Shown here: positions 1,955 through 27,840 of the stretch, in pieces
Position numbering within the stretch: position 1 is the stretch's first letter
Layout: every line of letters starts with the position of its first letter
Assembly: GCA_000934665.2 (NCBI GenBank)
Contig: JYFJ02003358.1
Coordinates: 1 to 42,996 of the forward strand
Direction: 5' to 3'
Source: Catajapyx aquilonaris
Taxonomy: Eukaryota
Length of the DNA stretch: 42,996 nucleotides
Program-made: the position numbers and the translations under genes
Notes under the pieces: generated by a model
Database searches by the model: none
What the model was told of the DNA's origin: nothing
Seen by the model: only the letters and a program-made list of their open reading frames with translations

Positions 1955-4217
1955 ATGATCAACATTCATAGATCCCAATATGTATCAGCAGTGTTAGTCA
2001 TGTTCATCTCCACAGGTCATTTTGTGCAAGAAAGGAACATCTGCAAGGATATGGTGAGTATATTAGTGTGTTTAATAGGCTAATGCATCGCAGCGTAATT
2101 TTTCTGAAGGTCATTAATAGCAAATCATTTGCACAGTAAGCATACATAAAGTGACGATATCGTGTATTTTGGTACCATTGCATGAGTCTACAAAATAATA
2201 ACATCAATGATGTAATATACAGTATTTTGAAACCAAGTGCAGATGTCCACCTTCTGTTATGTTGTGGCAACATTTTCTCCCTATGTAGGGCGAGAAGTCT
2301 TGCTGCGATGGATATGAATGGAGTGACGATGGAGAAACCTGCATTCCGATTTCTTTCATTGAACACTCAAACTTACAAGCGACAACACGTAACTATTTCT
2401 TGCATGAGTATTGGTCCATCATACTGTGTGTATAGTTTTGGTGTATGAACCATATTTTTATGAGAATAAATTGCGTCAACTATAGCATAAATCATCAAGA
2501 TCAAATTACCAGAAAGTGAAGAATGTTAATCAATAAATATCACAACTTTTCCTTAAAAAATGAGTCGTCAGCGACGTTCGACGTAGTAAATCCAAGTCAA
2601 GCATAAAATATGCCTAAGAGCATAAAGAGCATAAAGAGATGATCAAGTCAATGAAACGTTGGCTAATACATGTAGGCTACAGTACAATATATCACTGGTG
2701 TGTTGATGACATGTTCCAGCATCGCATCAGGATAAGGAAATTGTTGCCAAATCGATAGAGCACGAAGAAAACGCCATTCCGGAATCCATGGAAGGTCTTA
2801 ATTACGCCTCAGTATCTGGATATGACGCAAGTGCTTCCTCCGAAGTCTACAATATCGTTTCAAATGAAGAATTAGTCAGAGACGACTATTTCGTAGTTCC
2901 TTATCCAGCCAGTATTGGCTACAGTTCTGAGGAAATTCTCAACCAAAAACGTAAGTATAATATCGGAATTTAACTGCGTGGAGGATTTATTATTTCTGAA
3001 TAATCATTGTTATACATGTACTTATTTTCAGCTCCACCTGTCATTGGGATGGAAAGCGAAGATTGCCCAGACGAATTTGTGAAACTTTACCGAATTGGAT
3101 GCTATTATTTTAGCAGCGAAAAAAACTACTTCAACTTTGCTTCGGAGCATTGCAACCGTTTGGGCGGCTACTTAGCTGAGATAGATGGTGCCAATGAAAA
3201 CGAGGCGCTGAAGAAGATCATCTCTGTTGGTAACTCCGCTATTCGTAAAGAGTTACACAGGTAATGTTTGTTTCATTTTAGTCAACAGAAATCACCACTT
3301 GCTGGGTGCAACTGATCGAGATGAAGAAGGGACGTGGATCTGGGAACATTCAAAAAGGCCCATGGTATTCCAAGATTGGTTCCGAGGCGAACCCAACAAT
3401 TACGCCAATCAAGACTGCCTGGTTATCTCCAATTACAATGAATTCAACTACCAATGGGACGATATTGCCTGTTATCACGATTTCTACTATCTATGCGAAA
3501 CAGACGAAAGATTAGAATCTAACAGCACGACCACAAGTCCTAAAGGTGGGTAAGTTTGAGAGAAGTGAGCAACACCATTTGTTTCATAATTATTGGTACT
3601 CCTGATCACGAGTGCACCCGGAAAATAGGGGCTGGTGACACCAGGCAGTAAGCAATAAAATAATTTAATTGCAGATTTGGCGCCACAAACAAACGAGTGG
3701 GATTGCCCTGAGGGATTTAGCAAGGAAGGAATTGAGACATGTTATCAACTTGTCGTAAAACCACTGAACTGGTTTGAGGCCAAAGATGCTTGCAAGGAAC
3801 TGAATGGATACCTGGCCATAGTGGACACTGAAGTCGAAAACACCGCAGTTACCGAAATGATCTGGCAATTAGGTGGCGTACATAATGAAAGCGGTCTCTG
3901 TAAAAGTGACATTTAATTCTTGTATATGACTGGCTACATTTATTATTTTAGGTCATGTGGAGGTGTACATTGGCGCTAACGACGCGGAAGCAGAAGGCCA
4001 GTGGAAATGGGTGGATGGGACGCCAGTTGCTTTTGCAAACTGGGGATCTGGGGAACCCAATAACATGTACAGAGAAGACTGTGCTACCATCAAAGGGCAG
4101 GATTACTACCAATACTCCAGACTTTGGAATGACGCTAATTGTTACGAGAGAAAATATTTCCTGTGTCAGACTGACCAACGCGTGTCGAAGAGCAACCGAA
4201 CTACAATTTTAGTTTAA
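1955..4217 (+). CDS. Lectin gene A: secreted CCxGY-module protein with 2 C-type lectin domains (~451 aa)
   Basis: Exons 1955-2053, 2289-2388, 2720-2950, 3032-3229, 3282-3545, 3675-3872, 3952-4217 with consistent phases. Hydrophobic leader, GEKSCCDGYEWSDDGETC, CTLD motifs LGATD/EPN/WDD and YIGAND/EPN/WND. AATAAA at 4217-4222. Confidence 0.88.
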
Positions 4218-4871
4218 ATAAACATTAGCTAATTTAAATCATAATTAAGTGCTTCCTGTCTCTCGTTTGGTCCCATAATGATTCTAACCAATGAAAGTTC
4301 AGTGCTTCACATTGACTGATGTTCCAGATATCTGTAAAGCAATAATGTGTATGATTCTGCAATACTGACATATCTTACATATATAAATCAAAAAGTTTGT
4401 TGGTATTTATGTATGTCATGGCTACCTAACCCCCTTCCAGAGTACTGAAACTTGGAACACTGACGTCTTATTACGTGCCACTGATTCAGGGAAAAGTCTG
4501 AAAACTGCAATTTTTTGGTGTCTAAATACCAAAAATTTCGAATTTTGTTTTTTATTATGTTTGGTGTCTCATCTTCGGCAACTGTGGCACATAGCTATTT
4601 CTTTTTTATCAATCACCATGCGAAGAACGGGTCCCCCCGTCTATAGGGTATAAAATGAAGCATGCTATATTATGTTCAGTACATCATATAGACGTGGTGG
4701 CATGGACAAGTGGCTTGTGATATCAATGATAACTAACCTCCTCGCACACGGATGCAGCTGTGGAATGATTAGTTACTGGTACAACTGTAACTACTTGATT
4801 GCACGTATCGAGAACTGTTTCCACATCTGAAGAGCTGTCATTTGGCAGAAGCACCTTCCAGTTGCTTCACC

Positions 4872-7800
4872 ATGATCGCATTCAAAAGGTCCCACCAAGT
4901 GCTAGCTTTGCTACTAATAGGTTTATCGGCCGGTTACGCTTTACAAGGAGACAACGTCTGCAGAGATTCGGTAAGTGGGTGAAAAATTGTTATACACAAT
5001 GTGAGGTAATTAAATGCTAATATTACTGCAAATGTATCAGAAAAGCAGCATCGTTACATGCAATAGATCTGCTTCGTTTGCTAGAATTTTTGGTTCGTAA
5101 AAACTTGATAGTGCCTACTCAAAAGAGCAAGCTCGAATTATTGCTAAGCAGTGTTTCTGGGCTGAGATGCAGCGGTCATATGGAAGGGTCAGAATGTTGA
5201 GAATTTGAAATTTCTGTAAGAGTTTAAAATATCCACAGAAGGCTGTAATTATTTTATTGGTATTGGTATTAGTAGGTGACAAGGTATTTTACGAGTCACA
5301 CCTTGGTCACTAACCAACTGGAAATAGAAACTTGACGATTTGGCTTTTTCCACTCTTTGGGTTTCCAAAGAGTGGAAAAAGCCAAATCGTCAAGTTTCGA
5401 ATGAGATATTACCTCAACAAGTTCATGATGTGCAAAGTTTAGTAAAAACATGATGACTAGTACTGAAAAATGAGGCACCATATATCACTGCTTTGAAAAT
5501 TGAAATAAAATTATTACTGCAGGCTCCTAGCACCTTCTGCAAACATTTGAAGGTTGAAAGAATATTGCAAATTCGGAACGTTCTGGCTTCTGTGTAGCTA
5601 AGGAACACTGGCTTGTAATGTTCTAGTTGGCACTATATTTTATCTATCCAACAAAAATACTAGCAGACCAAGCAACATTGGTGCTCTATGGCTCACTTAT
5701 CTAATTTGGTAGCGTACTTTATACAAATGCATTAGCATAGGTGCAGACATAACGACATGGGTCGCAGGAAATGAATTTAGGAGAACGTAATGCTGTATTT
5801 AATTAATGGGTAATGAATCGAGGCCCACACCGGATCCTCCCCTTCGCCAGTTAATTTGTCGCTTACATCCTCCAATAAGCTGTTCAAAAAAAAATCAGCA
5901 TACAACTAGAGGATGCTGCCTGTGATTACAAAATGATATCTGAATATCCGGAAGCACACTTGTAAAATACAGGAGCAACTCTTCCTGCTGATATGATGGC
6001 TTTTGAACAAATTAATAGGAACAGTCCATAATCTAATATTAAGCGATGACATTTGATATTTACAGGGAGAGGAAACATGCTGCGAAGGATACGAACAGAG
6101 TGAAGATGGACAATCTTGCGTTTCAATTCTCTCAACAGAAGAAAACTCCAGCTCACAAGAGAAAAAACGTATACCTTACTGCTCATTGTTATTTGAGATA
6201 TTATATGCTCTGGCTCTGAATTTTCTTCTCAATTCCTATTTAACAGAGCAAGAATAACATGCTAACACAAACTGTTACACGAGCATGCCAAAATAATTTA
6301 CCCTTTCATATTATACTACAGGTAGCCCAACAGCAAATTTTTCCAAGAAGCGAAACGCGCGTAAGAAGCGTGATTACGACGGCAATTCTTATTCATCCTA
6401 TGAATATCTCGCAAGAACTAATGAATTACCAAGCCGAGAACGTGAATACGTTCCAGAATCCATTGAAGCAAGGCATCATTATCCACATGTGGAGAGTAAC
6501 AGCAACTACATCCCTGAATCCATTGAAAGAGGAGGTTATGCTCCAGTGCCTGAAGAGCCCAGCGGCAATATTCCAGAATCTCTCGAACGAGGAGGTTACA
6601 TTTCAGAATCAGCAGAACGAGGAGGTTACGTTCCAGAATCAGCAGAACGAGGAGGTTACGTTGCAGAGTCTGCCGAAAGAGGTTCCGTTCCAGTGCCAGA
6701 AGATCACAATAGTTATGTTCCAGAATCGGTCGAAATAGACGCACGCTACAATTATGGGTCTGAATCTGATGAGAGTGAATCTTCTGAAGTGTACAATTTT
6801 GCTTCTGGAGAAGACGAATCTCGAGCAGGAAACCTCAGATATGTGCCTGATGTTAGCGCTGATTACTGTAAGTGCGGTATTTTTATACAGGCTTAGTGAA
6901 GTATAGTATGTGCTTAGCCTACACTTTTCAATTTCGTGTTGCAGATCTCCCACCTCTATACCCACCACCCCCACCACCTCGCCCAGTCTTTGTTGGACTG
7001 GAGAAGGGAGAGTGCCCAGATGAGTTTGTAGAACTTCATGGAACTGGATGCTATCACTTCAGCAAGGAAAAGTTGCCGTATTCCATCGCTTCCCAACATT
7101 GCACAGAATTAGGCGGATATTTGGCTGAAGTGGAAAGCCACAGGGAAAATGAAGCTCTGAAGAGGATCATATCAATTGGTGATGTGATATTTCCATTTCA
7201 GCAATTCTGAGTCTGAATACTCTTAACCTGTGTAGCAACTGAGAGACACTGAGAAAGGCATTATATTGTCCAGTAAATTATCAAGACATGCTTGTATTTA
7301 GCAATTAGCAGGCCGAGAAGTTACTTGTCAATAATTGTATGACATATCTTTTGGTGAATTAAGATATTCAAGCTACGAGTCTACCTATATCAATAACACA
7401 GGCGACCCTTATTATTTCCTGGCAATTATGATACCCAAGTTCATTTAATCATTTAATGTTTCAGAAAATGACAATCATCATTTGCTCGGCGCAACTGACT
7501 CGGATGAAGAAGGAAGGTGGATATGGCAACATTCGAGAAGTCCTATGATCTTCGAGGACTGGTTCCGAGGAGAACCTAACAATTACGCCAACCAAGACTG
7601 TCTGGTTATTTCCGATTATGACGAATTTAATTACCAGTGGGATGACATCTCCTGCTCTTATTCTCTACATTACGTATGCGAAACTGACGAGCGAACAACC
7701 ACGTCTACAGGTATGTACGAGATTTAAAAAATAATTTATGTATAGTATAACTTCCAAGCCTGCATAACAAACTTGTTTCAGACTCTCATGTCTAATAAAT

Positions 7801-10703
7801 ATTGTCTAAAATAATAATGCAGACCTTTTTCTTCTTTTTTAAAAAAATACAGAAATTGAAACTTCGAGTAGTGAATGGGATTGTCCAGAAGGATTTACTA
7901 AGGAAGGATGTGAGACCTGTTACCAAATCGTCCAGACACCAATGGATTGGTATGAGGCCACAAGTGCATGTGAACAACTGAATGGATACCTCGGCAAAAT
8001 CGAAAATGAAGTTGAAAATAACGCGGTCACAAAAATGATATCGGACCTAGGTATGCCGTCGACATTTATTTACTATAATATTTGTCACCCATTAGCCATT
8101 AGTATACGCATTATGCAGTAATATTTTTAATTCTTCAGGTAATGTGGAAGTGTACATAGGAGGAAATGACATTGAATCAGAAGGAACATGGAAGTGGGTG
8201 GATGGAAAGCCCGTCTCTTTTACAAATTGGGGACCAGGAGAACCGAATGACCAAGGTGGCGAAGATTGTATCACCATCAAAGGACAAGGCCACGGTCCTT
8301 ATTCGGAACATTGGAATGATGCCAGCTGTTACGATAGAAACTACTTCCTGTGTCAGACTGACCATCGAGTATCAAAAAGTGAATGAACATCTATTTATGA
8401 TTCTATTATACAGTGACCACAAAACATTATTGTAAATAATTTTATTCAAATTTCAGAAATCATTATCGAAGGCGAGGAGTGCCCTGACGAGTATGTAAAC
8501 CTCGAAGGTCAAGGATGTTACCACTTCAGTACTTACGACGAGGCAAACTGGTACGACGCTGAAGATCGGTGCAAGAGCCTGGGTGGATTTTTAGTCAGCA
8601 TTGAAACTGAAGAAGAAAACAACGCCATTCGTTCATACATCGAGTCAGGTATTTATCCTATGATCAGCCTCATGTTTTACTTCCTCAAGTAGCAGTGGCC
8701 TGTTCATAATATAACTTTGCTCCTGCAGGAAAGAAGAACTTTTTCATTGGTGCCAACGACATCGCTTACGAAGGCCGATGGATCGACTCAGTGGGAAAAT
8801 CAGTGCAATTCACTGACTGGGGTGAAGGGGAACCAAACAATGCCAACGAAGGCGAAGACTGTGCTGTGTTGAAGGGCAATGGCTTTAACAAGGGAAGGTG
8901 GAATGACGACAGCTGTTACAACGAGTTTTCGTACATCTGCGAAACCCATCTTCGCCGTAAAGATGGCTGTGAGTCTTTCGTCCAAAATATTCCTTTCCCC
9001 AAATTCATCGTTCTCGTTATCTTTATAGTTATTCCTCATGGAAATGGAAATAACTGCCCGGTCGATTTTGAGCTGGTCGATGGACAGTGCTACTTGTTTG
9101 CCTCAGACGACATTGCCATGACTTGGGATGATGCCAACAATTATTGTGAAACCAAAGACAGTTACTTGGCAGAAATGGATTCACCAGAAGAAGGCGACGC
9201 ATTGAAGGAACACATGAAATACTGTACTTTGATTTAATTACTTAATAATAAGTTGGCTCTAGTGTAATTCTAACACCAACAAATTTCATTTTAGCGTATT
9301 ACAGTGCTCATTTCGTTGGTGGCAAGGGGCAAGGAACTATAGACACATGGACGTGGGCAAAGAGCGGAAAGTCAATCAACTTCTGGACTACATTCCCAGA
9401 AATGTATGGTTTCCCCCGACAAGAACTGTGCATGGTGATGGCTCCTTTGAGGTCGCCCGATTGGGTTTGGTCCACTATGCGATGTGACGAGCAAAATTCA
9501 TTCATCTGTGAAACTGAAGCTTCAGTTGTGGAAATTCCCGAAAAACCCACAAGTAAGATTTTTCTGCAAAAATATTTGCAATGTTTTCCATATCTTCATG
9601 GGAAAATTCTGGTTTTGCAAAGATTTGATTTATCACATAATTTAACGAAATTCTACTGAAGTGTATTATTGGAAATTGAACATTTGACAAGTAATAGTAT
9701 TCCTCCCGAGATTCCTCCAAATCATAATAAGGGGATATATTTTGCACATTCCATGGCATAGTGCCCCCCTCACAGTCTAATAAACTATACAATAAAAAGA
9801 CTTCTTTTTCTGAATAAAACACGATTGAAAATTTACAATATTAGGTTATAGTAGTTTAATCTGCAATGATCAGTTTCACAACTTTCTTTCAGGCAATCAT
9901 GATTGTAACTGGCCTTTCAAAGCTATTGGATATGGATGCTACTATGTCGGAGATACCCAAGAAAACTGGTGGGTTGCAGCTGAGACATGCCATGAAAAAG
10001 AAGGCCATCTGATCACTCTCGACGATTCCACAGAAAACAAAATTATCAGAAACTACCTGCAAGGGGGTAAGTAATACCAAGCTTCATTAGCTCTTACTAG
10101 CAACACTGTTGCAATTTCTACACCAATATTATATGTCCAATACAAAAAATGGAGATATTGATATGTAGTACATTATTGAACTGGGTGCATTTTGAAAGGT
10201 GAATACTCATAAAATAATGCTCGTCAATACGTATACAGTAATTCATGCTGGCATTTGATAATTGAGCAAATGCTCCTCATACAGTATGTGAGCTTCTGGA
10301 GATATTTTGTCTTTAATTATACCCTACAAAAAAATGTCACATAAAATTATGTCACTGGATTCCTCCCTAACATGCATTTTTCTTGTTCCTCCCCCCTCTG
10401 GAACAAATTGCGATTGTCATCATAATGTCACTTTTTTTTTTTGCAGAGAGTATGGATCATGTTTGGATCGGAGCATACGATTTAGGTCACGAGGGTCAGT
10501 GGGTATTAGACAGATCTCGGAAGCCAATGGTCTTCTCCGACTGGGCCAAACATGAACCAAACAACCATGAAGGAAATCAACATTGTGCTGCTTTGAAGGA
10601 AGGCATTGATTACCGATGGGATGATGCAGATTGCCTTGATGAATACTATTTTATGTGTGAGAGCGATCCAATTGCGCCAATGCCAACATTGTACTATCGT
10701 TAA
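4872..10703 (+). CDS. Lectin gene B: secreted CCxGY-module protein with 5 C-type lectin domains (mannose-receptor-like tandem CTLDs, ~993 aa)
   Basis: Exons 4872-4970, 6066-6168, 6322-6867, 6945-7178, 7465-7710, 7853-8050, 8139-8378, 8457-8648, 8729-8968, 9029-9223, 9295-9552, 9893-10066, 10447-10703. Signal peptide MIAFKRSHQVLALLLIGLSAGYA, CCEGY, RKKR. EPN in domains 1, 2, 3 and 5; no transmembrane segment. AATAAA at 10777-10782. Confidence 0.9.
6567..6686 (+). repeat. Coding 30-nt tandem repeat, 4 copies (consensus YVPESAERGG)
   Basis: Units such as TACGTTCCAGAATCAGCAGAACGAGGAGGT start at 6567, 6597, 6627 and 6657; a further dispersed copy starts at 6507. Confidence 0.9.
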
Positions 10704-11000
10704 ATCAACTGGAAATGTGAGAACGTGTTATGAGATTTTTTTTCCCCATCCTTAAAATCAACATACAATATCAGAAAATAAAGCATCTTTGAACTCAACT
10801 AATGTGCATTATGGGACTTTTGGCCCACCCTGTAGCAATCCCAGACAGAATGAAATCCCAAAATCCAAATGGCCCTTACCATCACCTACTTTATTGCACA
10901 GTAGTGAAACAGTCACTGACATAAAAATGAGCAAGATCAACAATGAACAATCTGAACACTCCCATTAACAGGATACTACTAATATTGCTTGACATGTGGA

Positions 11001-14000
11001 CTATGAGACAGTACAAAAGTTCTCCTCACTTCCCAGATCAGTGCCCATGTCTCCCTGAAGCATGTGGTTCACAACAGCTCTTGCTAGGTAACCAACTGTC
11101 ACTGGTGTTGGGGAATTAAAAAATCCTGTCATATCATGGCTTCTTTCCTTATTTAAATCCTGTAAAAATAATAATGGTCACATATACAACAGGTTACATA
11201 AACATATTATTTTAGTAGTTGTGTGGAATTGACAGAAAGTGCTGAATAATGCATTATACTGTATGAATACTTCAGAAAACCTATCCTGATGCTATAGACA
11301 CAACAATTAGTACTTAGCAAGGTGAAAGTAAGAATAGGACACCAATCACCTTGCTGTAGTACTAATGGTTGTGATAGATTTTTATGAAAATGTTTTCGAT
11401 TTGGCCCGTGTTGGTTACGATGTCCCATTTCTCCTGCAACTTTGGAATGAGTAAAACTCATCACTGGCTTTACATGCACTAGCAATATCACAGATAGTGA
11501 CAAACTTTGGCTTATTGTAACTTATTTAAGGGGCCATCCATAAAATTAACGCTTGGGGGGGNGGGGGGGGTCCGGCCGACCGTTACGTAATGCCCTCATT
11601 TAAATACAATTAATTGGAAAATTCAATTTCATAACGTAAGTTATGCCTATCCAAGTTTGTCCATCAATAATTCTAGGATATGCACATTTTATTACTGTAA
11701 GTGTTCATCCCTTGTATTGATGAAACACAATGTCATTATTAACAGCATTTTGATTCCATAACAGTTGCGTTTGGCATTCACTGTGACATACCTTGTTGAA
11801 CATGCGCAATGCTTCTTCCAGAAGCTTATCCAAATCAACACTCTTCTCAAAGCTGAGTTCAGGGTTCCTATGCAAAATGGTTGAAACAACACAAAGCAGC
11901 TCAACCATAACCTGTCTGTATTCTGGTCTATCCACCCGGTTGAGGGTCTTTTCTACTAAGAGGGCAAAGTTGAGCTCAGACATGGTCATGTTAGAGATGG
12001 TTGGGTGCTGAGGGAGGTGACAGTCCGCCACACTTATCCCTTCTTTTGTGCGCTTCAGGATTGTCCAAACCATCTGATAGAAATTGTCTGGAACTCGCCC
12101 AAGGCAGCCCTCCAATTGGCGCTTCTGGTATGGGGTCAACCTAAAAGATGTGAGAATAAGCAGAATCACAAAGCTTGTTCAGGTGACCTAAACAATGACT
12201 TGTAACTGACAAAAGTACGATTGTGAAAGTATTACTTTATCTGACCTAGTATGCTTTAGACTGGCTAGCTAAAATAATCCAATTAAAACCACAAATTAAA
12301 AATATACCTCATTGGTATCAACAAAATTATATGATGAGCGTTACAAACTTCTATAACACAATATTATGTCACTTTCAGCATACATGAGCATCAAAATTTC
12401 AAAACACTTCTTACGAATTGTCCACACTCCACTCCCTAATCTTGAAGATCCGATTCAGGAAAACCCTTAGCTCACTGGGACTGTAGCATTCCAAGGGCTG
12501 TGGATCTTGCACAAATCCCATGCCCATGTAGAGCTTCACAGCATGCAAGATCCAACCCACACGAATATTGCGTATCCCATTAAATAAATCTGGACTGGTT
12601 GTCATCAGCTGCCCCACATGTACTATGACCTCCTGCTGCAGCACCGCCTGGTAAATATCAGCAGGTTGAACACGGCTGTAGAGCACCTCATGAATCTCCT
12701 TTGGGGTCATAGGTTTTCCCAGGACAATCTCTTCCTGGCCTACGACACCAACAGTCACCTGCTTTCCGTTCACCAGGACCTGTTGAAGTGGTTAACTTAT
12801 TTTAAAATCAATGTAGATTCTTTTTTGGTTTCTAATTTATGCTTCAGTCAGGGCCCAAAAAAAAAGATTGTCATACCATGCCAGCAAAATTAGCTGGTAG
12901 CAAAAAAAAGGCAATTCAGTAATATGAATAAGCAAGCAGTATTGGGTTACCCTAGGCGATACCTGGTCAAGTGTCACAAGATTTTTGGCAATGTGTTCAT
13001 TACCACAAACTAATATTTTCTCTCAACTGTTGATGTCAAATTTGATGACCAACCTGAGTGATGTAGGGACTGATACTGTCCACCATGTGTCTAAGCAGGC
13101 TGCTGCACCTCCTCACAGTGGCCCACTGCCTCATGGCCCCAGCCTGTCTGGTGATCTGACGTAGCTGGTCTTCCACAGTTACTCCCTCCAGCATAAATGT
13201 TGGGCCTTCTCGTGACAAGAGGATTCCCAGTAGGCAACTCTTACCATACAGTGTAGTTGTGAATTTCAAAGCCTCGAGGATCTCATTTGTTGGCTTTTTC
13301 TGATATCCCTGTTATAAAAGTAGTGGGTTCATTATTACATTCTGCACACAATGTCTGAACTTAAAGTTCCACATTATGTACAACATTAACAAAATTGGTC
13401 AGCAACCATATAATTGCAAGTCACACAACTTGTGTTCTTCATGCAGGTAATAAGAATATTTAGCTACACTTACAGATAAGTCTGAAATGGGTTCATTGTA
13501 CTTCACAATCTTGGGTATGTCTGTGAGACTCTGGAAACCAGTGTACTCATGGACTAGCTGAATAAAAGGCTGTATGTCCAGCTCAAGCCCATCCACAATA
13601 TCCATGAAGTCCAAATGCTCTGCAATATGACAATTCCATTTGCCATGTGATACAATGACAAAAACAAATCCCAAGTGGTTCTCACCAATGCATGAAGAAG
13701 CAATCATGTTCTGAAGCCGTCCAAGTTGAACCTTCTGATTACCGCAGCTGCCAGATTTTAGCAATGCCAGGAGCCCTAAGAATTCTTTAAATTTTGGGTC
13801 TCTACATGCCAAAATAAGAGATCCAGACAGTACCATATAAGACTCACACAGTAAGACTTCACAGAGTAATTTCAGTATATGAAAATGCCACCAGCATTAC
13901 ACCTATTGCTGAAAATGCACTGTTAAAGATTATAATCAATATTGAGCCACTAACCTCATGTGATCTTCCCGAATAAGAATGCAGTAAGTTGGTCTTCCTG

Positions 14001-17000
14001 ATAGTCTCCAATATTTCCCAATAAAATGGATGTCATTTTTTATGTCATCAATTAAAATTGTCATGTCATGAGATAGGTAGAAGTCTGAAACTTCCAGGAT
14101 CAGTGGGTAGCAGAGAACTGTCTGACCAAACACTCGATATATCTATAAAAAATTATGTGTTTTTTACTTAGATAGGAATAACTACAAAATTTAGAGAATA
14201 TAGCACACGCCTATTTACAACTACCACTTGATCACACATATCACCCTAATCAACTGATTTAGAGTTCTACTGTACCTTGGCAGTCCCAAGAGCTCCAACA
14301 GGTCTGGGTGGCCTTCCCTTAAGTCCAAGTTTGTCATTTACTCCCAAGTTCTCATAAACTCTGACAAGCTCTGATGGAGGCCAGATCTGGACTGGCTCTA
14401 TCTCATGAGGGGTCTGGGTGAGAATTCCATAGGTAGCCATCATTGCTTTCAGACGCATTGACTCTGCTATCAGAGACACCTGTACCACCAGGTCTGGAGC
14501 TACAGACTAATGAAACATACACCTATATTAAAACTCATTATTATATCAAGTGTATCTTGCATGCAGTCAGGCCTGAATATTTGGAAGACACATTCATGCA
14601 TGCATTTTCAATCCATTATCAAGATAACGGCCCAATTAAATTGTAAGCATTTGAAAACACACTTACCCCAGTATGGCGCTTGCCCTGGATGGCATTTTTT
14701 GTATAAAAAATAAAAGGACATCGGAAGATCAGTACAGAAAACCACACCACAAGAAATTAATCCAAAAATGCATCAAGCTATAAATAAAAAGCCACCACCA
14801 TGAAATCACACCAAAAGCACTTCAAGAACAATGTGCAATTAGAATGCGAGGTAAAATTAAAGAGATACTGATCAGGCTAATCTTCTTTTAAAAAACTATC
14901 AACAATGTGCATTTGAAATGCAAAATTCTCCATGTGCAGAAGTCTTCCTAAGAGGCTTCAGATACCATACTCAAATAATGAGTTAATGACATTGTTCTAG
15001 AATGTTTCCAAGAGGACATGAATGTATTACCCGCACCATTTGATACAAATACCATACAAGCTAGACATAACTTGACTTTAAAATGTGGCAACTTAATGTG
15101 CACAGGGAAGGACTCAGCAACGAATTGCAATGGCTAAATGTGACACATCACAGAAGCAATTTCTTGTGGTGGTGTCAACCCAAGAATACAGTGGAAGGTT
15201 GGGCATTGCCATAGGAACTCATAAATTTAACAAATCAGACACAGGCTGCTGGTGGTAATAAGTTTGCAGTAACTCTGGAGAGTACACAGCTCTCCAGGCA
15301 TGTTTCTTCCAACAGGCCCAAATTTTGTCCGTAACATCTATTATGTCCCATCTCAATTAATGGTTGCCACATTACTGAGATATTAACAGGATATCCTCCT
15401 CCACTTCTTGCCAACATGATCTTCTTGCTTTATGGCATCATTTACGCAATTGTGATGTGGGCTTTAAAAACCCTCTTTGATCGTCCTCTACACAATGTTG
15501 CACCAGTCGCGGTATATGGAACGGTATATGGAAGAACCCTGCACAGCGGGTACACGGTATATTCCATGAAAAACCGCGGGTTTATTCCATAGCGTTGCAT
15601 CGGTCCAGATAAACGCGGGGTTTTCGGTAGTTCGCTGGCTCATGAGAGACGTAAGAAGGCAAAAATTTTGGAGAGCGCTGATTGGGTCGCAGCACCCGTG
15701 ACGCAATCCGTGACATCATGGAAGTATGGCTATTCGACTAGTATCTACGGCAACCATGTGGCAGGGTTGCCACCTGGTGTCACACAGTATACAAAATCCC
15801 TAGCACCATGACGACACCATAATCCCGCGGTATAAGCAACTTGTGCTGCAGGATCGGCGGGTAGATGGATCCGGCGGTAAATGGGAGGGAGAACGGGCCG
15901 TTTTAGAACAACCGTAGGTGGCGCAACACTTCTCGCGGTATACCGGAGTGAAAACCCGCCGTTTTCCATATACCGTGACTGGTGCAACCGGCCCTTAGTC
16001 ATGTCATAATTACACTTTAGATTTAGTATTTTGTATCTTAGTATCTGTAGAATTTTGATGTCACCAAATATACCGCAACATAACAATAAAAAGACTCGTG
16101 CTATTAAGTTCCAGAGAGTAGATGAACTTCATGATTCAGCATTTAAAATGTCAAAAATATAAGCATAAATGCTGACATTCCCAAGTTACTGTTTCTTTGA
16201 GCTATTATTAAAACACTCGGCTTAAAATCTTTAAGCTGAAATGTAAGGAAGGCTTCAGTGAAGCAGTGGTGCAATAAGACAATAACTCTTGCCTTCATTA
16301 TGCAAGGTAAAAACTACCCATATCAATCACCTAGAAGCAGAGCAAGAAAATCCACAAAAGTTGTTGCTGCTGCGACAACAGAATCTGCTCTGGCTGAGGT
16401 TTGCTTGATGTGCTTCACCGAAAGTTGAAGGAGCAAATCAGTAAATCCAGAACAGGTGACAATCAAATGTTATTAATAGAAGAGTAATTATTATTATTAC
16501 TCGTTCAGGGTTTACCGTCATTTTTAGAACCCAACCTCAAAGGGGTGTATTATGGAATAAGTAGTATTGCACAATCATCATTTTCATTGCATGTGAGTAT
16601 TAGGAAAAAATATTAAACTAGAAAAATAGGACATCATCTAATATTGCTATAGAAATTAAAATTCTTGCACTTTCTTATACTGGATCTTCATATGGCCATT
16701 GAAAATTCTAAGCAATAGCAAAGGCAAACTTTTTATCCCTATATCGTTACATCTCTTGCAGTTCCAATTCACTTTTCTCATTCATGACAACATTGATCGT
16801 TCGCAATGAAAATGTCCATGAAGCAAAAACTGGTTTTTCTGGATATAATGTTGAGTAAGGTATCTTCCTAATCGTATCCTTGGGAAATGCGCTCTTGTTA
16901 TGAGAAAATGTGAGAGAGCAAAAAAGTGCACATACAAACCCACGTAAAAAGAGGGAGAGTTGAAATAATAGACTACAGGTGCATGGACTCGCCTGGAAAG

Positions 17001-20000
17001 CAGAGTACCTTCCACCAGCCTTGGGCCTGACGTAAGATGGCAGGTACCTTCTCATCAGGTCCAGTTCTGTGACACTCAGCAAATGATTGATAAGAAGTTC
17101 TGATATCAGGTAAAGAGCCTGTCCCCAGAGGAAGATGTGCTCGGAGCTTCCTTCCTTGCTCCCGTATCTCAGTTGGCTTCCAGGGTTTCTCCTCTCTCGA
17201 TCTATATTCTCTTTGGGGACATAGTAATACATGGGGACTATGGGATCACCATTGTGATCCACCTTCAAGCGGTTCGCGAGTGCTGATGTATACTCGTCTA
17301 CTTGATCTGGAGCACCTGCAATGTTGACAACAAAATTAATATGCTGGTAACTCTAAGACTGAAAGACTACTACTGACCTACTGTCACTCATTTGCTTGGT
17401 TTATTTGTGCAGGGGAGGTAGGAATGATTGAAGTTAGGTTTTTAAATCAAAAGTAATTAACAGATGTGATAAGCCATGAAGGAAGTTAAATAGAAATCAC
17501 TGTCAAGGAATACCCCTTAATTCAGTTTGTCATTGGCTGATGTGCCCTATTCATTCCAGAATAAATAGAAAACGACAAGAATAAGTCCCTTACCTTTGAA
17601 AACCCCATCAATAATCATGTATATATAGAACAAAGGCCACTCGCACTCCACATGTTCAAACTCCTTGGTCTCGCCATCATAGTAGTAGCGACGAGCTGAG
17701 TCTTCTAATTCAGTAGCATACCCATCCCGCAAAAAGCGCTTAAATCCATATGTGCCCCTCAGCTTGCGCACAATTTTACTCTTGGTAGCTCCATAAAGAA
17801 CCTCATCATGTGTTGCAAAAGCAGGGAATGAAACAGTTGGGAGTAATGATGCATCAATATTTTTAGAGCTTGACTCCTTTGGCAGCATAGTTTCAAATAT
17901 ACTTCTGTTACGATTATGGGCATCAATGTCAACATATATAACACTCCAGGCAGAGCCACGAGTTCCAAACAAATTGAATCCATTAATTGCTTCTAATGCA
18001 GCTTTTGCCATACCAATGCTTGATGCATGTATTTCAGGGCTGCCATCATTGTATTTGGAACCTCTTCCCCACATTCCATAATCTGGTGTGCGATATGCTC
18101 TCTCTACATAATAAACCAGATTCTGCACAAAAGCAATTTCATCTCTGGTATATATGATTTGTAGATCAGATGATATCATCTGCACTAGGAACAACAGCCA
18201 GAGAGAGACAATGTCTATCTGCAAGTGATGGTGCTCATGGTCTTGCAGTACAGTGTCACCTGTCACCAAGTGGAACTTGCAGTGCAGGGAGTTTTGAGCA
18301 CATTGGTTCTTTTTGAAAGCCTCCACTCGTGAAGCCTGTCGTAACCAGCATTCAAGAATACCCCGCATTGTCTTGACAGCTGACTGGCCCAGGATGTAGG
18401 ACCGCCCACGATCATCATCCATGCGCCTTAAGGAATTTAAAAATCCGAACATCCAATCAAAATGTTATACGTATACAGTGTAATTAAGCTTATTTATACA
18501 AATAACCTTACTCTTAGTGTTTAAAATATTTAGCCCATGGCTCATGTCTATTACGAGGGGGGTCCAGAAAGTAAGGTAAAACATTTTTTATCTTGTAAAG
18601 TTTTAATGACAGATACATACAACTCACACATATTGAAGATGTGGTTAATCTTAATGTCATTATTCAATGTGATCATCGAGTTGGTACAAGCACTTGTTCC
18701 ACCAAGTCTTCTATACCCCCTGTCTAGAATTTCGGGTCAAGCGCAAGTAGCCAGGCGATGCCCTCTAATTTCACCTCCTCAGCAGTGGCAAATCATCTTC
18801 CTGACAGGTGACGTTTCAGGGGGCCAAAAAGTGAGAGGGGTCCAAGATTTAGCACATGTGCGAAGGACCCATTCTTTGGATGCACAATGTCACACTAGAG
18901 ACCATGGTGGTTTTTAATTATCCTTCTTCTCTCCAGCCAAAAATGTCCAGACCAGGTCTTCTGCGAAGAAATTCATGGCAACAGTCTACACTTGGTCCCC
19001 TGAAAGGTCACCTGTTGGGAAGAGAGTTGTCCAGTGACGAGGTAAAATTAGAGGTCATGACCTGGCTACTTGCGCTTGACCTGAAATTGTAGGCGGGGAG
19101 TATAGAATACCTGGTGTAACGGTGGTAAATGTGCTTGTACTGACTTGAGGATTACATTGAAAAATGACATTAGCCATATATTCAATATGTGTAAGTTGTG
19201 TGCATCTAACTGAAACTTTCCAAGATTTTTTTTTAAAAATGTTTTACCTTACTTTCTGGGCACCCATCGTAAAACAATCAAGTCTTTATAATAGCAAAAT
19301 CAATATCTTTGGTAAGTTTTTGTTATGTGACAGAAATGCATGGAAATTCCTTCAGCCGGACCAAATAAAAGTTCTTTAATGGAAAAATTTTGGTAATACC
19401 CAGGTTTCACTTCATTTACAGTAAGAATTACCTGAATGACTGGCAGAGAGCCCAGAGTGAAGCTGCACAATAGATGCTATCCCTCACACTACCAATCTGA
19501 GTCTCTGATGAAACAATTGGGAAAAGACCAGTAGTAGGGCTTTGGTAGTTGAGGATCTGCCTCTTCACTGCAATATAATAAAAAATTACATTTCTATTAC
19601 CAAAAATTTGACAAAGGAAAACAAAAAAAAAAAACTGATCTATATGCTACTTGGTGTTTAAAAAAGTGAACCCATCTCGACCCATCCTCTCAGACTTAGG
19701 TATGATGCGAATGTTTGTGGCAAAATTATTCTAATTGGTTCTAGTTTGAAAATTTTTGGCAAGTGAAAGCAATATGTGGTTGGCTCAGTAATGGAACCAA
19801 AATGACATAACTCAAAAAGCGGCCATTTTGCTTTATAACATGACAGGCCCACCTATGTAAACATAAATGCAGTAGGTCCATGTTGCATTGAAAATTCTCA
19901 CTTTACAATAATAATGCCTAAAATAGCAATGATTTTCCTGTGCTACTACAACTGTTACAATTTATTAATGTGAGGATATTATCGGATATTATGACATTTC

Positions 20001-20762: not shown

Positions 20763-20930
20763 GGCTTTGTCTGTACGTGGATGTTTTAAGGATGGATTCT
20801 ACGTTGCCTGTGGGACCTGTGGGACAACAGTCGTCGCTCTCTCCCGCTCTCCTTGACGCATTTTAAGACGAAGAAGCAGATTTTATAATCCGACCCGTGA
20901 TCCGACCCAGGTCGCCGCCATTGCTGCAAG

Positions 20931-20938
20931 TGACGTCA
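20931..20938. promoter_or_regulatory. Perfect CRE/ATF palindrome TGACGTCA at the PHKB 5' end
   Basis: Exact 8-mer about 170 bp upstream of the proposed ATG, in a CpG-richer patch beside a YY1-like CCGCCAT. Confidence 0.5.
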
Positions 20939-22015: not shown

Positions 22016-24187
22016 TTAAAACAAGCTTACTTGAGACACCCGCTCATCAGTTTCGCAAACTGAATATCTTAAAGCATGGCAGGCTGCCACTTCCCGTATT
22101 ACACTTCCGTTATCGTTCAGGTATGCGCATGTTAGGTCGTGGACATTACTGCTTCCTACCAAAGCTTCGCTCATACCTAACCAAAAAAAGAAAAAGAATT
22201 TTGTTACATTCTTCTCTATGGTACATAAAAGCAAATCATAAGTAGGCTACCCATATTACCATGTACTCTCAATATATTTGCAAGAGCGTCATTCTCCTCT
22301 ACTGAGTCTAGAATAGCCAAGTAAGCTTTCATCGACGCGCAGTTGGTGTCTGCTTGAGACCAGGTCATTGCATCCTTAACTATTCTATAGCAGCTCCCGC
22401 AGCCAGCCTCGATAAATCCCTCTGGACACTTCCATTCGATTCCAGCATGTTCAATCTCTAAAAAAATTAATACAAATAAATATCGATAAACAAAAACCAA
22501 ACTGGAAGATACCTATACCTGGGATGTGGGTGAAAGTAACTTCCTTCCTCTGGTCGGTTTCGCACACATAATGCAAGTTACGATTGCAGGATACATCATA
22601 CCAGGCAAAATAATTGGTGCCCAGACTGGAAAGTACTAAGCAATCTTGATTAAAGAAATTGTTTGGTTCGTGTCTGAACCAGTTTTCGTAAATTATGGGC
22701 TCTTTGGAATATTCCCATATCCATCTGCCTTCGTCGATTATATCGGTGCCACCAAGGTAATGATGGTCATTATTGACTGGAATTTGATTTGTAACACTGT
22801 TAATACTGTGCATGTAGCTAACACAACTTACAATAATGTAACGAGGCAGAATACCTTCAAAAATCAGTGTTTGAATGGCTTTATCCTCTTCGGAATTGTT
22901 TACTTCTGCTAAATATCCCCCTTTGCTTTCGCAATCCTGGGATGCGGAGGAAAATGAGTCTTTTTCATTGCTTAAAAAGTAGCACCCAATTCCTCGCAAT
23001 TCTATGAATTCATCTGGACAGATCCCACTCTCAAATCCAGCCACTTCTGGTGCTAAAATTCAGAATATTATAGCGAAGTTGTTAGTATAGGTACTTTGGA
23101 GGATCTGTTTCGTAATGAGAAAAAAATAATTGCCTACCTCGTGGATGCGCATTACTAGGAGAGTCAAGAGCATTTTCATAGCTGTAGCTAATGATGTCAG
23201 GATTATTAACTGCCATGTTTCCAGTTCTTGAACCAGATTCACCCGAAGCAAAGTTATAGACTTCACGAGTATCACTGTCGCTGTAAAATTCAGATGACCT
23301 GCTCGGTTCTGCAAAACCTGGCCCTGTGAATATCTCCGGGCTACATTCATGTCTATGAAAAATGTCGCAATATTTATTTTAATATACCTTCGTATTCTAA
23401 CGACTCGGGGATAATGTTCATATTTTCTGAAGATTCTGGAACGTAATTGTTGATTTCCAAAGATTCAGGCACATAATCGTGTTCGTTCGGCTCCGAAAAA
23501 TAGTAATTGTTGTTTTCAGTAGATTCAGGTCTTCCATGTTCTGATCTTTCAATAGATTCTGGTATGTAATCATCATTGTTATTCATGGCTTCTACTGATT
23601 CCGGAATGTATCTATAGGGCATGTCCCTTTCCTCGTGGACATTGCGCTTCTTTCGCACTCTTCTCTCACTTGCCAGTTCTCTTGCTGAAAAGTTTAAAAA
23701 AATACGATTGTTTATTCTATTTTTTAACAGTACCGTTATGACTTACGTGACCCTTGCAATTCCGAGATTGCAATGCAAGCTTTTCCATCAGGGCTCCTCA
23801 CATATCCTTCGCAGCATACTTCTTGGCCCTATTTCAAAACAAGCGATTTTGAGCTTACCACCACAAAATGTCAAAAATACACAGGGTAAGATAATACGTT
23901 GTCATTATGATGAAGATGATGAAATAGGTTTGTTGCATTGACGAAGATAACCTAACAGCGTCACTATGCACAACGTGCTTACGTTATGCTATATTATTAT
24001 CTGATGCAGTAAAAATCAATCGAGCAAACTTCCAATAATTGAACACTTCATAATATTTATTCTAGTGTAGGTCATGTAGGCTACTCACCAACTGTTCACA
24101 AACGCTAGGTTCATTCAGAGGTGTAGCTTTGGCCACAGAAACAACAAGCAGAGGGATTAGCAGCAGATATTTCTCGGAGAAAAACAT
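22016..24187 (-). CDS. Lectin gene C: secreted CCxGY-module protein with one intact and one loop-deleted C-type lectin domain (~487 aa)
   Basis: Exons 24187-24089, 23828-23747, 23684-23388, 23308-23138, 23052-22855, 22776-22519, 22457-22260, 22176-22016. Signal peptide MFFSEKYLLLIPLLVVSVAKA, GQEVCCEGYVRSPDGKAC, RKKR, Y(I/V)PESxE repeats, EPN/WYD. The 3' end is uncertain because a possible donor follows RVSQ. Confidence 0.87.
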
Positions 24188-24759
24188 GTTACACAACTTT
24201 TCACTCCTTATGATGGCAAGAGTCAGAGTATTGCACACAAACTCATTGTATTCCACTGTCACTTATCAGAGACTACTGATTGATATTGTACTACCGGTGC
24301 CATAATCGGTGAAACGGGTGCTTCCGTAGCTCAATGTAACTTATCAAATATCACACAGTAGCAGAAACCTTGCGGATGTATATGAAATCCTGATTGGTTA
24401 CTTCCAAGTTCCAACTTTATAAAGTTTGGTACCGGTACTTACTTTTTACAACGTGTATCCTTACGTTTTGAGCATAATAAACTGTGGCATGCCAACATGA
24501 ACATGGAAGAGATACTTTTTAGCAAGTTAATACTGTAAAAGAGTCAGAATCACATTTCTTGTAGGCTTTCGAAAATAAAGGCAACTATTAACTTCAAATT
24601 TAATTGCTGCATATTATATCTTTATTGCGCTTAACACAGTACATTTTGCTGGAAAGTCGAAATGGCATACGGAAATGTCTGAAAAATTAATGGGTTGTTT
24701 TGGAGCGATATATTTTTTCATATTGTTATTTGCTTTCAAGACGTATACGGAAATTGCTT

Positions 24760-25284
24760 TTAGTCCAAGGCAGGTGTCTCACATATGAAGAAGTTTTCGT
24801 CTTCGCACTCGACATCGTCCCAGTGGAACCGTATGTGCCACTTGTTGCTAAAAGCAGCACAATGTTGCCTCCCAGAATGATTATTGGGCTCACCAGGCTG
24901 CCAGTCTTCGAATTGAATGGGCTTCCTGTGGTAATCCCAGTACCAGCGCCCTTCATGACCCATATCGTACGCACCCATCCAATAGACAACTTCCTCTCCA
25001 CCTGTAAAGGATCCAGAGGCAATGGAGGAGTTTTCTGACATTGTGGCCACCTCATCAACAAACAGGATTTACATTGGCAATATTCTTACCGTGACGTTTC
25101 AGAAGATATTGCCTGATATCTTCGTTTCCTCTTGGAGATTCCACACTGACCAAATGTCCATCCGACAAATGGCGACATTTTTCTGTGGCCGTCCACCAGT
25201 TAGCCACTGAGTCACTTATGTAATAACAGTTTGAGCCCAGTTGCGTGTAAGATGGGTAGCATCTGTCGCTTCCTATGGTTAATA

Positions 25285-25363
<79 letters not shown>

Positions 25364-27840
25364 GCATATAAGTTGTAAACTTCTCTTTGGGGCCATTGAA
25401 GTCTTATACCTGTTTCTGATGGCTCTGGTACAGCTTCACTCACGATTGGATCCGTCTCGCATATGCATGACATACTTTGGGAGCATAAGACAGCATCCCA
25501 GTACCATCCGTCTTCATACGTGAGGGCCATGCACCTGCCCATGTCGGACGTCGTGTCTCTGAACTTTCCTAATGGTGTCATTGGTTTGCCACTGTTGCTC
25601 CAAGTCCAACGTAAATCTTCTGTGTCCACTTCGCTTACTCCCCCAGTGTAGTAAGAAACACGGGTATAATCTATGGTAAAATATTTAAAATTTTTAAAGC
25701 AAGTTATATTATTTTATAATATAGAAGCTAATGTAGCTTATAAAGATTCTCAATAAGATTTTACTCTAATTTAGTTTTTTTAAACGTATAGTAGCCCAAA
25801 TGAAACAATATTAGGCAAAATAATAATTATATTCATAAACCTTATACACATGCAGGATCGTTCCTATAGTGAAACATCAACGTGGAGGAGAGTAATGAGA
25901 AGAACTAACCGCTTTCAAGGTATGACTTGATTGCTTCAAATTCATTATAGGAATCAATTTCCACAAGGTATCCGCTTGAAAATCTGCACCGCGCACTGGC
26001 ACTGTTCCAATCTTCGTAGCCAGAATATTTCTCAATCATGTAGCAACTATCTCCTAGTAGCTTGTATCCTTCAGGACAATGCAAAACACTTCCAGCTAAA
26101 TAGATTTTAAAAAATGAACATTAGTTTTCGTACATTTATGCACCACATGCAGAGCTCTGTTTATTATGATATGAAAGTAACATTACGTCTGTGGCGTGCT
26201 GGTTGACGGACGTTTGTTTCGCAGATATAGCCAAATTTGTTGCGGCATTCATCATCGTTCCATCTCCCTCTGTTGTATCCTTCGCCTTTGAGCACGACAC
26301 AGTCTTCATTACCAGCGTCGTTTGGTTCGTCGTACCCCCATTTTGCGTAACGAACATCCTGTCCCTTTTCTACCCATCTCCAGTGGGATTCATCTTGGAT
26401 ATCGTTTGCTCCAATGTAATAGTCGCGGCCAGGATTTGCTAAATATTATTGACATTCACATTTTCCGCACTTGAAACAATAATAATCAGTAACGAAAAAA
26501 CGTTATATTTTGCCTACTCTTTTCGATGTAGGCTGCTACTGCTGTCACCTCTGCTTCAGAATCCATTGTTGATAAGTATCCTCCCATCTTCTGGCATTGC
26601 TTTTTGGCAGAAAACCAGTCAATCTCTTTTTCGCTATTGCTCACAAAGTGACAGCCAGTACTTTCAATGTTAAAGAATGGTGGTGGACATTCCTCATTTT
26701 CCCGGGGTGGTTCTACACAAAAATTGTAATGATTATACCCTCAGTTAAATGTGTGTGAAAACCCATATTCACCTGAATGCAATCTCATATCAGTTTCGCA
26801 CACGTAGTTCAAATTGTCATCGCAGTAAAAATCATCCCATCTAAAATCAAAGTCACTATAACCGGAAATAGCGAGGCAGTGTTGATTCCAGTTGTAATTA
26901 TTGGGTTCACCGTAGCCCCAGTTCGAAAATTCCATATTATTTCCCGAGTGATCCCAAATCCATGTTCCTTCAGTAACGCGATCAGTGGCTCCAAGATAAT
27001 GGTGGTTCGCATTCTCTATAATATCAGAAAGTTTGTTATAATTATATGGCAAGAGTAAAATTTCGAGTTCATACCTGTAGAAATAATCCTTTTAACGGCC
27101 TCATTTTCTTCTTCATTGTCAATTTCAGCCAAGTAACCTCCTATTTCACGACAGCTGAGTTTTGCTGCATCCCAGGTCTCTCTGTCCTCACTAAAATGGT
27201 AGCATCCTATACCATCTAAATACCGATAATTGCTGGGGCAATCTCCATTGTTACCGACTGAAAGTGCAAAGTGCTGTTGACTGCCAGGTATTATAAAAGC
27301 GAACTTATTATTGGCTACTTACTTTCCTGTGAGCCGCTCTCAATGCTCTCTGAAGAGGAGTACAGGTTATATGGGTACGGGTACGAATAATCTGGATAAG
27401 ATCTTCGTTTTTTCCGAACTAGCATGTTATTATCATCCGATTCCGATATTAATTCATCCAAAAAACCTTCTTCTGACTCACCTGTGGACAAGATTTAGGA
27501 GGTGATTGTGATTATAAAGATAAGGCGGGCATATAGTGCGTATACCGAAATATCAAAATGTGTATTTACTTTCTAAAGCGATGCAGATATTAGGGGCTAC
27601 ACATGTTGCGTTAATGCAATCTGGATGGCACACTGGTACACAAGATCCGAGCTCCTTGGTGTAACCATCACAACAATCTCCATTTTCCTGAAGCAACAAG
27701 TGAGTTAATTGTGTGTATCCATTACAATAATATATTCAGCTTACCTCTTCCACACATCCACGACTTGGTGAGGTGAAGGCAGATGGCACTGCTATGAAAC
27801 AAATAAGCGCAATAATTTTGAACCTTTCTGAATAATTCAT
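24760..27840 (-). CDS. Lectin gene D: secreted CCxGY+NIM-repeat protein with 4 C-type lectin domains (~705 aa)
   Basis: Exons 27840-27745, 27687-27570, 27481-27323, 27257-27075, 27015-26773, 26712-26518, 26438-26187, 26095-25910, 25670-25410, 25272-25090, 25001-24760. Signal peptide, CCDGYTKELGSCVPVCHPDCINATCVAPNIC, RKKRR. EPN in domains 1, 2 and 4. AATAAA on the minus strand at 24621-24626. Confidence 0.9.
25286..25362. repeat. (TAT)n microsatellite in an intron of lectin D
   Basis: About 25 perfect units; source of the spurious poly-Y and poly-N ORF tracts. Confidence 0.97.

Follow-up and report, generated by a model that had tools for sequence, protein, structure and literature searches.

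Four paralogous genes of Catajapyx aquilonaris join a CCxGY leader exon to an array of C-type lectin-like domains

A 42,996-nucleotide (nt) stretch of Catajapyx aquilonaris DNA (contig JYFJ02003358.1 of assembly GCA_000934665.2, positions 1 to 42,996 of the forward strand; hereafter the window), eukaryotic DNA of about 40% G+C, contains four complete paralogous genes of shared build, termed here A, B, C and D. Each comprises a signal-peptide exon, a small exon encoding the CCxGY motif, an acidic linker and a series of C-type lectin-like domains (CTLDs). The CTLD array is ordinary, and it is the head that makes the four genes unusual; the combination of a CCxGY leader with a CTLD array was found described nowhere in the material searched, which consisted of limited samples and not of a survey of architectures across arthropod genomes. 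The explanation favoured here, with modest confidence, is that the genes encode multivalent lectins of mannose type that are secreted and probably processed by a convertase, carry a leader taken from a Nimrod gene and act as humoral agglutinins or recognition molecules.

Gene models and their divergence

Genes A and B form a tandem pair on the forward strand, and C and D another on the reverse strand, with a phosphorylase kinase gene between the two pairs. The models were built by hand around each CCxGY motif from open frames and GT-AG sites, giving translations without internal stops and introns of 52-1095 nt, all GT-AG. Gene A (1955-4217, +; start codon at 1955) encodes 451 amino acids (aa), including two CTLDs, in seven exons (1955-2053, 2289-2388, 2720-2950, 3032-3229, 3282-3545, 3675-3872 and 3952-4217). 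Gene B (4872-10703, +; start codon at 4872) encodes 993 aa with five CTLDs in 13 exons (4872-4970, 6066-6168, 6322-6867, 6945-7178, 7465-7710, 7853-8050, 8139-8378, 8457-8648, 8729-8968, 9029-9223, 9295-9552, 9893-10066 and 10447-10703). Gene C (24187-22016, -; start codon at 24187) encodes 492 aa with one full and one truncated CTLD in eight exons (24187-24089, 23828-23747, 23684-23388, 23323-23138, 23052-22855, 22776-22519, 22457-22260 and 22176-22016), two of its junctions being ambiguous (23323 or 23308, and 22519 or 22513). Gene D (27840-24760, -; start codon at 27840) encodes 705 aa with four CTLDs in 11 exons (27840-27745, 27687-27570, 27481-27323, 27257-27075, 27015-26773, 26712-26518, 26438-26187, 26095-25910, 25670-25410, 25272-25090 and 25001-24760).

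Exon 1 measures 99 nt in A, B and C and 96 nt in D, ends in C-x-x-x and closes in phase 0, in agreement with the 96-99 nt signal-peptide exon that an earlier note on this DNA had described. Exon 2 measures 100, 103, 82 and 118 nt (A to D), always 1 mod 3, and all junctions after it are in phase 1, each CTLD being split over two exons. Skipping exon 2 therefore breaks the frame (the stop falls at codon 46, 172, 64 or 43 in A to D), and no other piece can bridge the change from phase 0 after the signal exon to phase 1 in the lectin exons. The small CCxGY exon between signal-peptide exon and CTLD array, and the acidic linker behind the head, were likewise present in all four genes, and the modular family of secreted proteins proposed in the earlier note is supported by these four paralogous models of the same build.

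The paralogues are saturated at synonymous sites, with a pairwise proportion of synonymous differences (pS) of 0.62-0.90. The non-synonymous proportion (pN) was below pS in all 12 comparisons, with values of 0.38-0.57 for the heads and 0.18-0.37 for the first CTLD. On this divergence the four genes are taken to be old paralogues of one lineage-specific family, and intact frames of 451-993 codons, together with the exon lengths modulo three, the phases and the cysteine pattern, would not be expected to survive such divergence without selection. These observations bear on the alternative of partly incorrect models or of genes in decay, exons 1 and 2 being relics and the lectin arrays either untranslated or provided with other first exons. 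The splicing and expression of the four genes are deduced from sequence logic, a point that favours this alternative and counts against the preferred explanation; furthermore, no annotated protein of the locus was found in the protein collections searched, and gene C, with its truncated CTLD and an extra short linker intron, appears to show some decay. Against it stand the four complete frames of 451-993 aa maintained despite saturated synonymous divergence, pN values below pS, and the conserved exon lengths and phases that make exon 2 obligatory. In addition, intron 2 of C (62 nt) and of D (88 nt) leaves no room for another first exon, and exon 3 holds no Met followed by a hydrophobic stretch. 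Taken together, wrong or decaying models are considered very improbable.

The CCxGY head and its probable kinship to Nimrod proteins

In a six-frame translation of the window, CCxG[YWF] occurred exactly four times, at 2301 (+), 6078 (+), 23816 (-) and 27675 (-), compared with a mean of 0.535 and a maximum of three in a first-order Markov null, in which none of 200 simulations of the window reached four. In all four proteins CCxGY lies at residues 37-42, the motif being one of those by which the Nimrod superfamily is recognized. Exon 2 of A (2289-2388, +; 100 nt, phase 0 to 1) has CCxGY at 2301-2315 and one more Cys after it, and the corresponding exons of B (6066-6168, +; 103 nt) and C (23747-23828, -; 82 nt) carry the motif at 6078-6092 and 23816-23802, respectively; the heads of A, B and C consist only of a four-cysteine knot, C-x7-CC-x-G-Y-x8-C. 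In exon 2 of D (27570-27687, -; 118 nt), with CCxGY at 27675-27661, the motif leads into an EGF repeat of the NIM type in which five of the six cysteines are present.

Pfam scans, structure prediction and database searches were all performed exon by exon and not on spliced proteins. When the 39 aa of D exon 2 were searched with phmmer against 1.84 billion representatives, 257 proteins scored E≤1e-3; the best of them each match the query 10-32 times and are thus proteins of tandem NIM-type repeats. Of 20 hit clusters looked up, 11 carried an organism name, in every case an insect (termite, stick insect, planthopper, flies, wasps, beetle and butterfly). All six phmmer hits scanned with Pfam passed the EGF_PEAR1L family, and 105 of the 159 fetched NIM-type proteins had CCxG[YWF] within the first 150 residues and then C-x-P-x-C, the same arrangement as in D. 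When D exon 2 was aligned with 15 Nimrod-type N-termini, positions C5, C6, G8, C16, C20, C24, C29, P32 and C35 were invariant across the 16 rows; the sixth NIM cysteine, near-invariant in this alignment, is Ala in D, whose exon ends there, before the closing CxCxxGY of the repeat. On these matches the D head is homologous to the N-terminus of insect Nimrod-type proteins, that is, to CCxGY plus the first NIM repeat.

Pfam gave no match for exon 2 of A or B, a chance-level cEGF match for C (E 0.03) and, for D, EGF_PEAR1L at E 5.3e-5 and 23.6 bits. No EMI match (PF07546) was obtained at E≤1 for any exon-2 translation, exon 2 being scanned on its own, and about 25-30 residues, the length of the mature head as far as the Cys that follows CCxGY, are too few for a full EMI domain. 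An AlphaFold model of D exon 2 from the 16-row alignment (pLDDT 87.4) showed two beta-hairpins, and the top Foldseek rows for this model were an N-terminal fragment of human SCARF1 (E 1.1, TM 0.59, root-mean-square deviation 2.4 Å over 36 columns) and then EGF domains of NELL2, fibrillin and Jagged. A sequence search of the PDB with D exon 2 gave no match at E≤10, and an ESM Atlas search gave an uninformative best score of 0.79. A profile built here from 97 Nimrod N-termini and run against 1446 targets scored D at 45 bits, the A-C exon-2 frames at 18-25 bits and the best other stop-to-stop frame of the window at 6.6-7.1 bits.

Several of these results weigh against the favoured explanation. 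The heads of A, B and C lack a Pfam match, and the profile scores of 18-25 bits for A-C are partly circular, both profile and targets having been picked by the CCxGY motif; A-C gained nothing over the short motif-only profile when the first NIM repeat was included (15-20 bits). The EGF_PEAR1L score of D is below the gathering score (23.6 vs 37.5 bits) because only positions 3-25 of the 49 are present, and the Foldseek search of the D model against the PDB gave no match at E≤1e-3.

The Nimrod superfamily is defined, in those portions of PMC4073527 used here, by a signal peptide, a CCxGY motif and, after the motif, one or more NIM repeats (CxPxCxxxCxNGxCxxPxxCxCxxGY, six Cys). By this wording, D would be a borderline member, and A, B and C would fall outside the definition for want of NIM repeats: only the first Cys of the repeat remains in them, and no EGF-type Pfam family was found at E≤0.01. 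Their link to Nimrod proteins is taken to be exon-for-exon paralogy to D. The Nimrod-type head assigned to all four genes in the earlier note thus stands for D, on the strength of the 257 phmmer proteins, and is weakened for A-C, which have neither NIM repeat nor Pfam match; the NIM repeat reported for D is present with five of its six cysteines. The comparison with EMI, NIM and EGF profiles and with solved structures that the same note had proposed gave a sub-threshold EGF_PEAR1L match for D, no EMI match for exon 2 scanned on its own and no Foldseek match at the E-values given above.

Lectin array, linker and predicted function

A profile of the CTLD second half, run over the window, found 12 full copies and one weak copy (the second domain of C, E 0.011), and none outside the four genes. 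The counts of two, five, two and four CTLDs given previously therefore hold, except that the second CTLD of C is truncated. Five of the six CTLD exons scanned matched Pfam Lectin_C (PF00059), four reaching the cut-off, and the closest solved relatives of the CTLD exons were PLA2R, MRC2, MRC1 and Mincle (E 2e-19 to 1e-15). The domains follow the long-form pattern, with exactly six cysteines in 10 of the 13 and seven in three. The seven-Cys domains are B2 (7853-8378, +), D3 (26095-25410, -) and C2 (22457-22016, -), and their unpaired Cys could give disulfide-linked oligomers.

EPN was found in 10 of the 13 domains, in line with the EPN-type CTLDs noted earlier. It is accompanied by WND in A2, B2, B3 and D2, by WDD in A1, B1, B5, D1 and D4, and by WYD in C1; B4, D3 and C2 have no EPN/WND-type site. 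The presence of EPN and WND in a CTLD predicts Ca2+-dependent binding of mannose/GlcNAc/fucose-type sugars. In the second CTLD of C, the second-half exon (22016-22176, -) has 52 residues compared with about 87 in its orthologues A2 and B2, about 35 being missing, including the long Ca2+/sugar loop; the alternatives are a compact CTLD and a deletion as a stage of decay. A T run reading as poly-Phe adjoins this exon.

A maximum-likelihood tree of the 13 CTLDs grouped them by position and not by gene, with supports of 100/100 for {A2,B2,C2}, 98/96 for {B4,D3}, 96/96 for {B5,D4} and 86/94 for {A1,B1,C1}. The ancestor therefore had some five CTLDs following the head; D has lost domain 2, and A and C domains 3-5. 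A perfect (TTA) x 25.7 microsatellite (25286-25362) lies inside the intron between the third and fourth CTLDs of D and appears in open-frame lists as poly-Asn, poly-Ile and poly-Tyr.

All four N-termini show a Met, a basic n-region, a hydrophobic core of 10-14 residues and small residues before the mature end, and the Kyte-Doolittle 19-residue maximum within the first 30 residues was 1.05-1.76 across the four proteins, as expected of the signal peptide that forms part of the Nimrod definition. Past residue 40, no 19-residue segment exceeded 1.04 in any of the four proteins, which agrees with the absence of a membrane anchor claimed in the earlier note; lacking any hydrophobic stretch beyond this point, they are predicted to be secreted in soluble form.

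A furin-type R-x-K/R-R site, RKKR, is present in B (residues 81-84; 6360-6371, +, at the start of the linker exon), in C (residues 71-74; 23644-23655, -) and in D (residues 94-97; 27405-27416, -). In each of the three the site falls where the linker begins, so that a charged stretch without structure, containing the site, separates head and lectins. Of the convertase site claimed for the family, the part concerning B, C and D is thus confirmed and that concerning A is not. The position of RKKR suggests that in B-D the head may be cut off and the two parts may separate after secretion, and it weakens the earlier idea of a Nimrod head joined to lectins as one working molecule. The head has an even number of cysteines (four, or eight in D after signal-peptide removal), so that after cleavage it would be a free, disulfide-knotted peptide of 40-70 residues. 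The head may be a pro-piece, a relic or a Nimrod-like module that still works.

These features bear directly on a second alternative, in which the head stays attached to or associated with the lectins and docks on a Nimrod-type receptor of phagocytes while the CTLDs bind microbial glycans, so that lectin recognition feeds Nimrod phagocytosis. The proteins would then be self-contained bridging opsonins, the Nimrod-type head being read by Nimrod/Eater-class receptors and the lectin tail reading microbial or apoptotic-cell glycans, with cleavage at RKKR arming or uncoupling the bridge. In its favour, the D head is a true CCxGY plus NIM module, the head cysteine pattern has been retained across saturated divergence, and NimB proteins, which are secreted, are reported in a preprint (bioRxiv 10.64898/2026.08.28.747790) to link targets with Nimrod receptors, in the case of NimB2 with Eater, a function only recently shown. 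The number of NIM repeats argues otherwise, with none in A-C and one truncated in D as against seven in AgNimB2 and ten in NimC1, and so does RKKR, which separates head from lectins in three of the four genes; the even cysteine count (four or eight) moreover leaves no spare Cys to tether the head to the body. Bridging by an attached or associated head is regarded as improbable.

The linkers of the four genes are 53-182 residues long and hold 12-36 Asp+Glu, 6-17 Tyr and between 4 and 12 S-x-E sites (six in A, 12 in B, nine in C and four in D). They are encoded at 2720-2950 (+) in A, 6322-6867 (+) in B, where 36 Asp+Glu, 17 Tyr and 12 S-x-E occur in 182 aa, 23684-23138 (-) in C, which needs an extra intron of 64 nt, and 27481-27323 (-) in D. 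The B linker contains a tandem repeat of 30 nt x 3.8 at 6570-6682, corresponding to a 10-residue unit. A proline-rich stretch with a six-Pro run (6945-7000, +) lies between the B linker and its first CTLD and is not found in the other three genes. The linker has no Pfam family, and of the 1055 candidates that the B linker exon drew from 5.8 billion proteins (longer class) none reached E≤1e-3.

The composition of the linkers and the 10-residue repeat of B fit a third possibility, that of matrix, cuticle or mineral-associated proteins in which a phosphorylated, cation-binding S-x-E/Tyr-rich repeat is combined with CTLDs that bind chitin-associated or matrix glycans and not microbes. Known matrix proteins of other phyla include CTLD proteins with acidic or repetitive regions, such as the spicule matrix proteins of sea urchins and perlucin, and a "perlucin-like" match was among the multi-CTLD profile matches listed. 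The absence of kappaB-like motifs within 800 base pairs (bp) upstream of each of the four genes, as searched with consensus strings, points the same way and counts against a humoral immune role; GATA and TATA counts upstream of the four genes were near expectation. Against a matrix role, the linker has no relatives among the proteins searched, EPN/WND sites are typical of soluble recognition lectins, and chitin-binding and cuticle domains are absent. A matrix or cuticle role is considered unlikely and is placed second to humoral recognition or agglutination, which appears the most likely role from the motifs.

The favoured explanation, that of processed, multivalent lectins, would run as follows. 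The 5' end (signal-peptide exon and CCxGY exon) would derive from a Nimrod-type gene and would have been joined by phase-1 exon shuffling to a long-form CTLD array, D retaining a truncated first NIM repeat and A-C only the four-cysteine knot. The signal peptide would be removed in the secretory pathway, and a furin-type convertase would probably cut at RKKR in B, C and D, releasing the cysteine-knotted head peptide. The body would then start with the acidic Tyr/S-x-E linker, whose motifs make Ser phosphorylation and Tyr sulfation in the Golgi likely and which would serve as a flexible charged spacer. The CTLD array, if its motifs are a guide, would bind mannose/GlcNAc/fucose-type sugars in a Ca2+-dependent and multivalent manner and so cross-link or coat glycan-bearing surfaces.

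To the reservations already stated on gene models, heads and upstream motifs are added others of the same kind. The signal peptides were assessed by eye and hydropathy only, and the gene A protein lacks an R-x-K/R-R convertase site. In CTLD1 and CTLD5, WDD replaces WND and a Gln stands at the position of the Ca2+-ligand Glu of mannose-binding protein, so sugar binding by these WDD/Gln variants is less certain. Finally, no orthologue or close relative was found in limited searches, the best outside CTLD match having 46% identity; given the saturated divergence of the family, orthologues should exist somewhere. With no orthologue found and no kappaB-like sites upstream, the opsonin or matrix function suggested in the earlier note is not supported beyond inference.

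Elsewhere in the window, a gene for the regulatory subunit of phosphorylase b kinase (11705-18464, -) separates the lectin pairs, with exons matching Glyco_hydro_15 (E 2.7e-39) and KPBB_C (E 2.3e-26); the nearest eukaryote cluster of one of its exons in the ESM Atlas was mostly Arthropoda, which serves as a lead only. The sole N of the window, at 11562, lies in the gap between gene B and this gene. Exons of an EAG/ELK/ERG-type voltage-gated K+ channel (29959-37808, -) adjoin gene D, with a cyclic-nucleotide-binding-like domain below cut-off (E 9.3e-5) and an S4-like Arg/Leu repeat in the frame 33969-34433. Just upstream of gene A is a Ser/Lys-rich open frame of 456 codons (179-1549, +), which may be coding and had no match in Pfam at E≤0.001.

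Relatives and comparison with known systems

Searches for the combination of head and array were made from both sides. The second-half exon of A CTLD1 gave one match among 5.8 billion proteins, a multi-CTLD protein with a bacterial-type TSP3 repeat, which was rejected as a relative on account of its unrelated architecture; against metagenome contigs, the A CTLD1 exon gave 97 pattern matches, none confirmed. A profile of the 12 CTLD second halves found 135 proteins at E≤1e-6 among 2473 candidates. The best 120 of the 135 are generic multi-CTLD proteins ranked by domain number, and none of these 120 contained PF23301 or PF07546 (PEAR1-type EGF and EMI) or a CCxGY or NIM-like motif. Conversely, none of the 159 fetched NIM-type proteins contained a CTLD; P0091, the only one with an EPN...WND regex match, was rejected as a CTLD fusion since it is not a CTLD by profile. 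No literature linking CCxGY/NIM terms with C-type lectin terms was found in limited searches, so that, within these literature and database samples, the earlier impression of an undescribed architecture is upheld.

C-type lectins and Nimrod proteins of insects are treated as separate recognition arms. A lectin array headed by a Nimrod leader motif would be a clear case of phase-1 exon shuffling between the two, and A-C, in keeping CCxGY without a NIM repeat, offer a natural test of the role of this still unexplained motif. Automatic annotation would say "macrophage mannose receptor-like", missing both the head and the convertase site. Should the improbable bridging by an attached head prove true, an arthropod lineage would have fused its two main systems of non-self recognition, C-type lectins and Nimrod, into single genes, and a head that docks on Nimrod receptors, in the manner of secreted NimB2 and Eater, would add to the interest.

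Secreted Nimrod proteins of the B type (NimB1-5 and AgNimB2) share with the four genes a signal peptide, CCxGY near the N-terminus and the lack of an anchor and, with D, the NIM-type EGF repeat. D exon 2 has 34-50% identity to the 15 Nimrod-type N-termini and all aligned cysteines but one in common with them. The NimB proteins, as far as the accounts used here describe them, are made up solely of NIM repeats, several in number and complete, whereas the proteins studied here have none (A-C) or one truncated (D), their bulk being the acidic linker and two to five CTLDs. CED-1, Draper, MEGF10, PEAR1 and SCARF1 resemble D through its EGF_PEAR1L match and the SCARF1 fragment in the top Foldseek row; however, these receptors sit in the membrane and possess a complete EMI domain with numerous EGF repeats, and the Pfam match is sub-threshold and the structural match not significant.

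Among lectins, insect CTL-S, the immulectins with their dual CTLD, and CTL-X are alike in being secreted with EPN-type, long-form, tandem CTLDs, and the four genes are CTL-X by definition. The immulectins differ in having two CTLDs, compared with five in B and four in D. The extra domains given for CTL-X in the sections drawn on of PMC5842395 and PMC7379682 are CUB, CCP/Sushi, EGF, FA58C and Ig, a CCxGY/NIM head not being among those listed there. The mannose-receptor family and invertebrate proteins annotated as "macrophage mannose receptor 1-like" share the tandem long-form CTLDs and provided both the best PDB relatives and the best database matches, with 20-46% CTLD identity between the four genes and mannose-receptor-like proteins; unlike the four genes, they carry a type I anchor after the CTLDs, and no ricin-type or FnII domain was seen in those exons of the four genes that were scanned. 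Finally, selectins and the thrombomodulin/CD93 group also unite a CTLD and EGF-like modules in one extracellular protein, but in the opposite order, the CTLD coming first and then EGF, with a single CTLD and in membrane-bound form.

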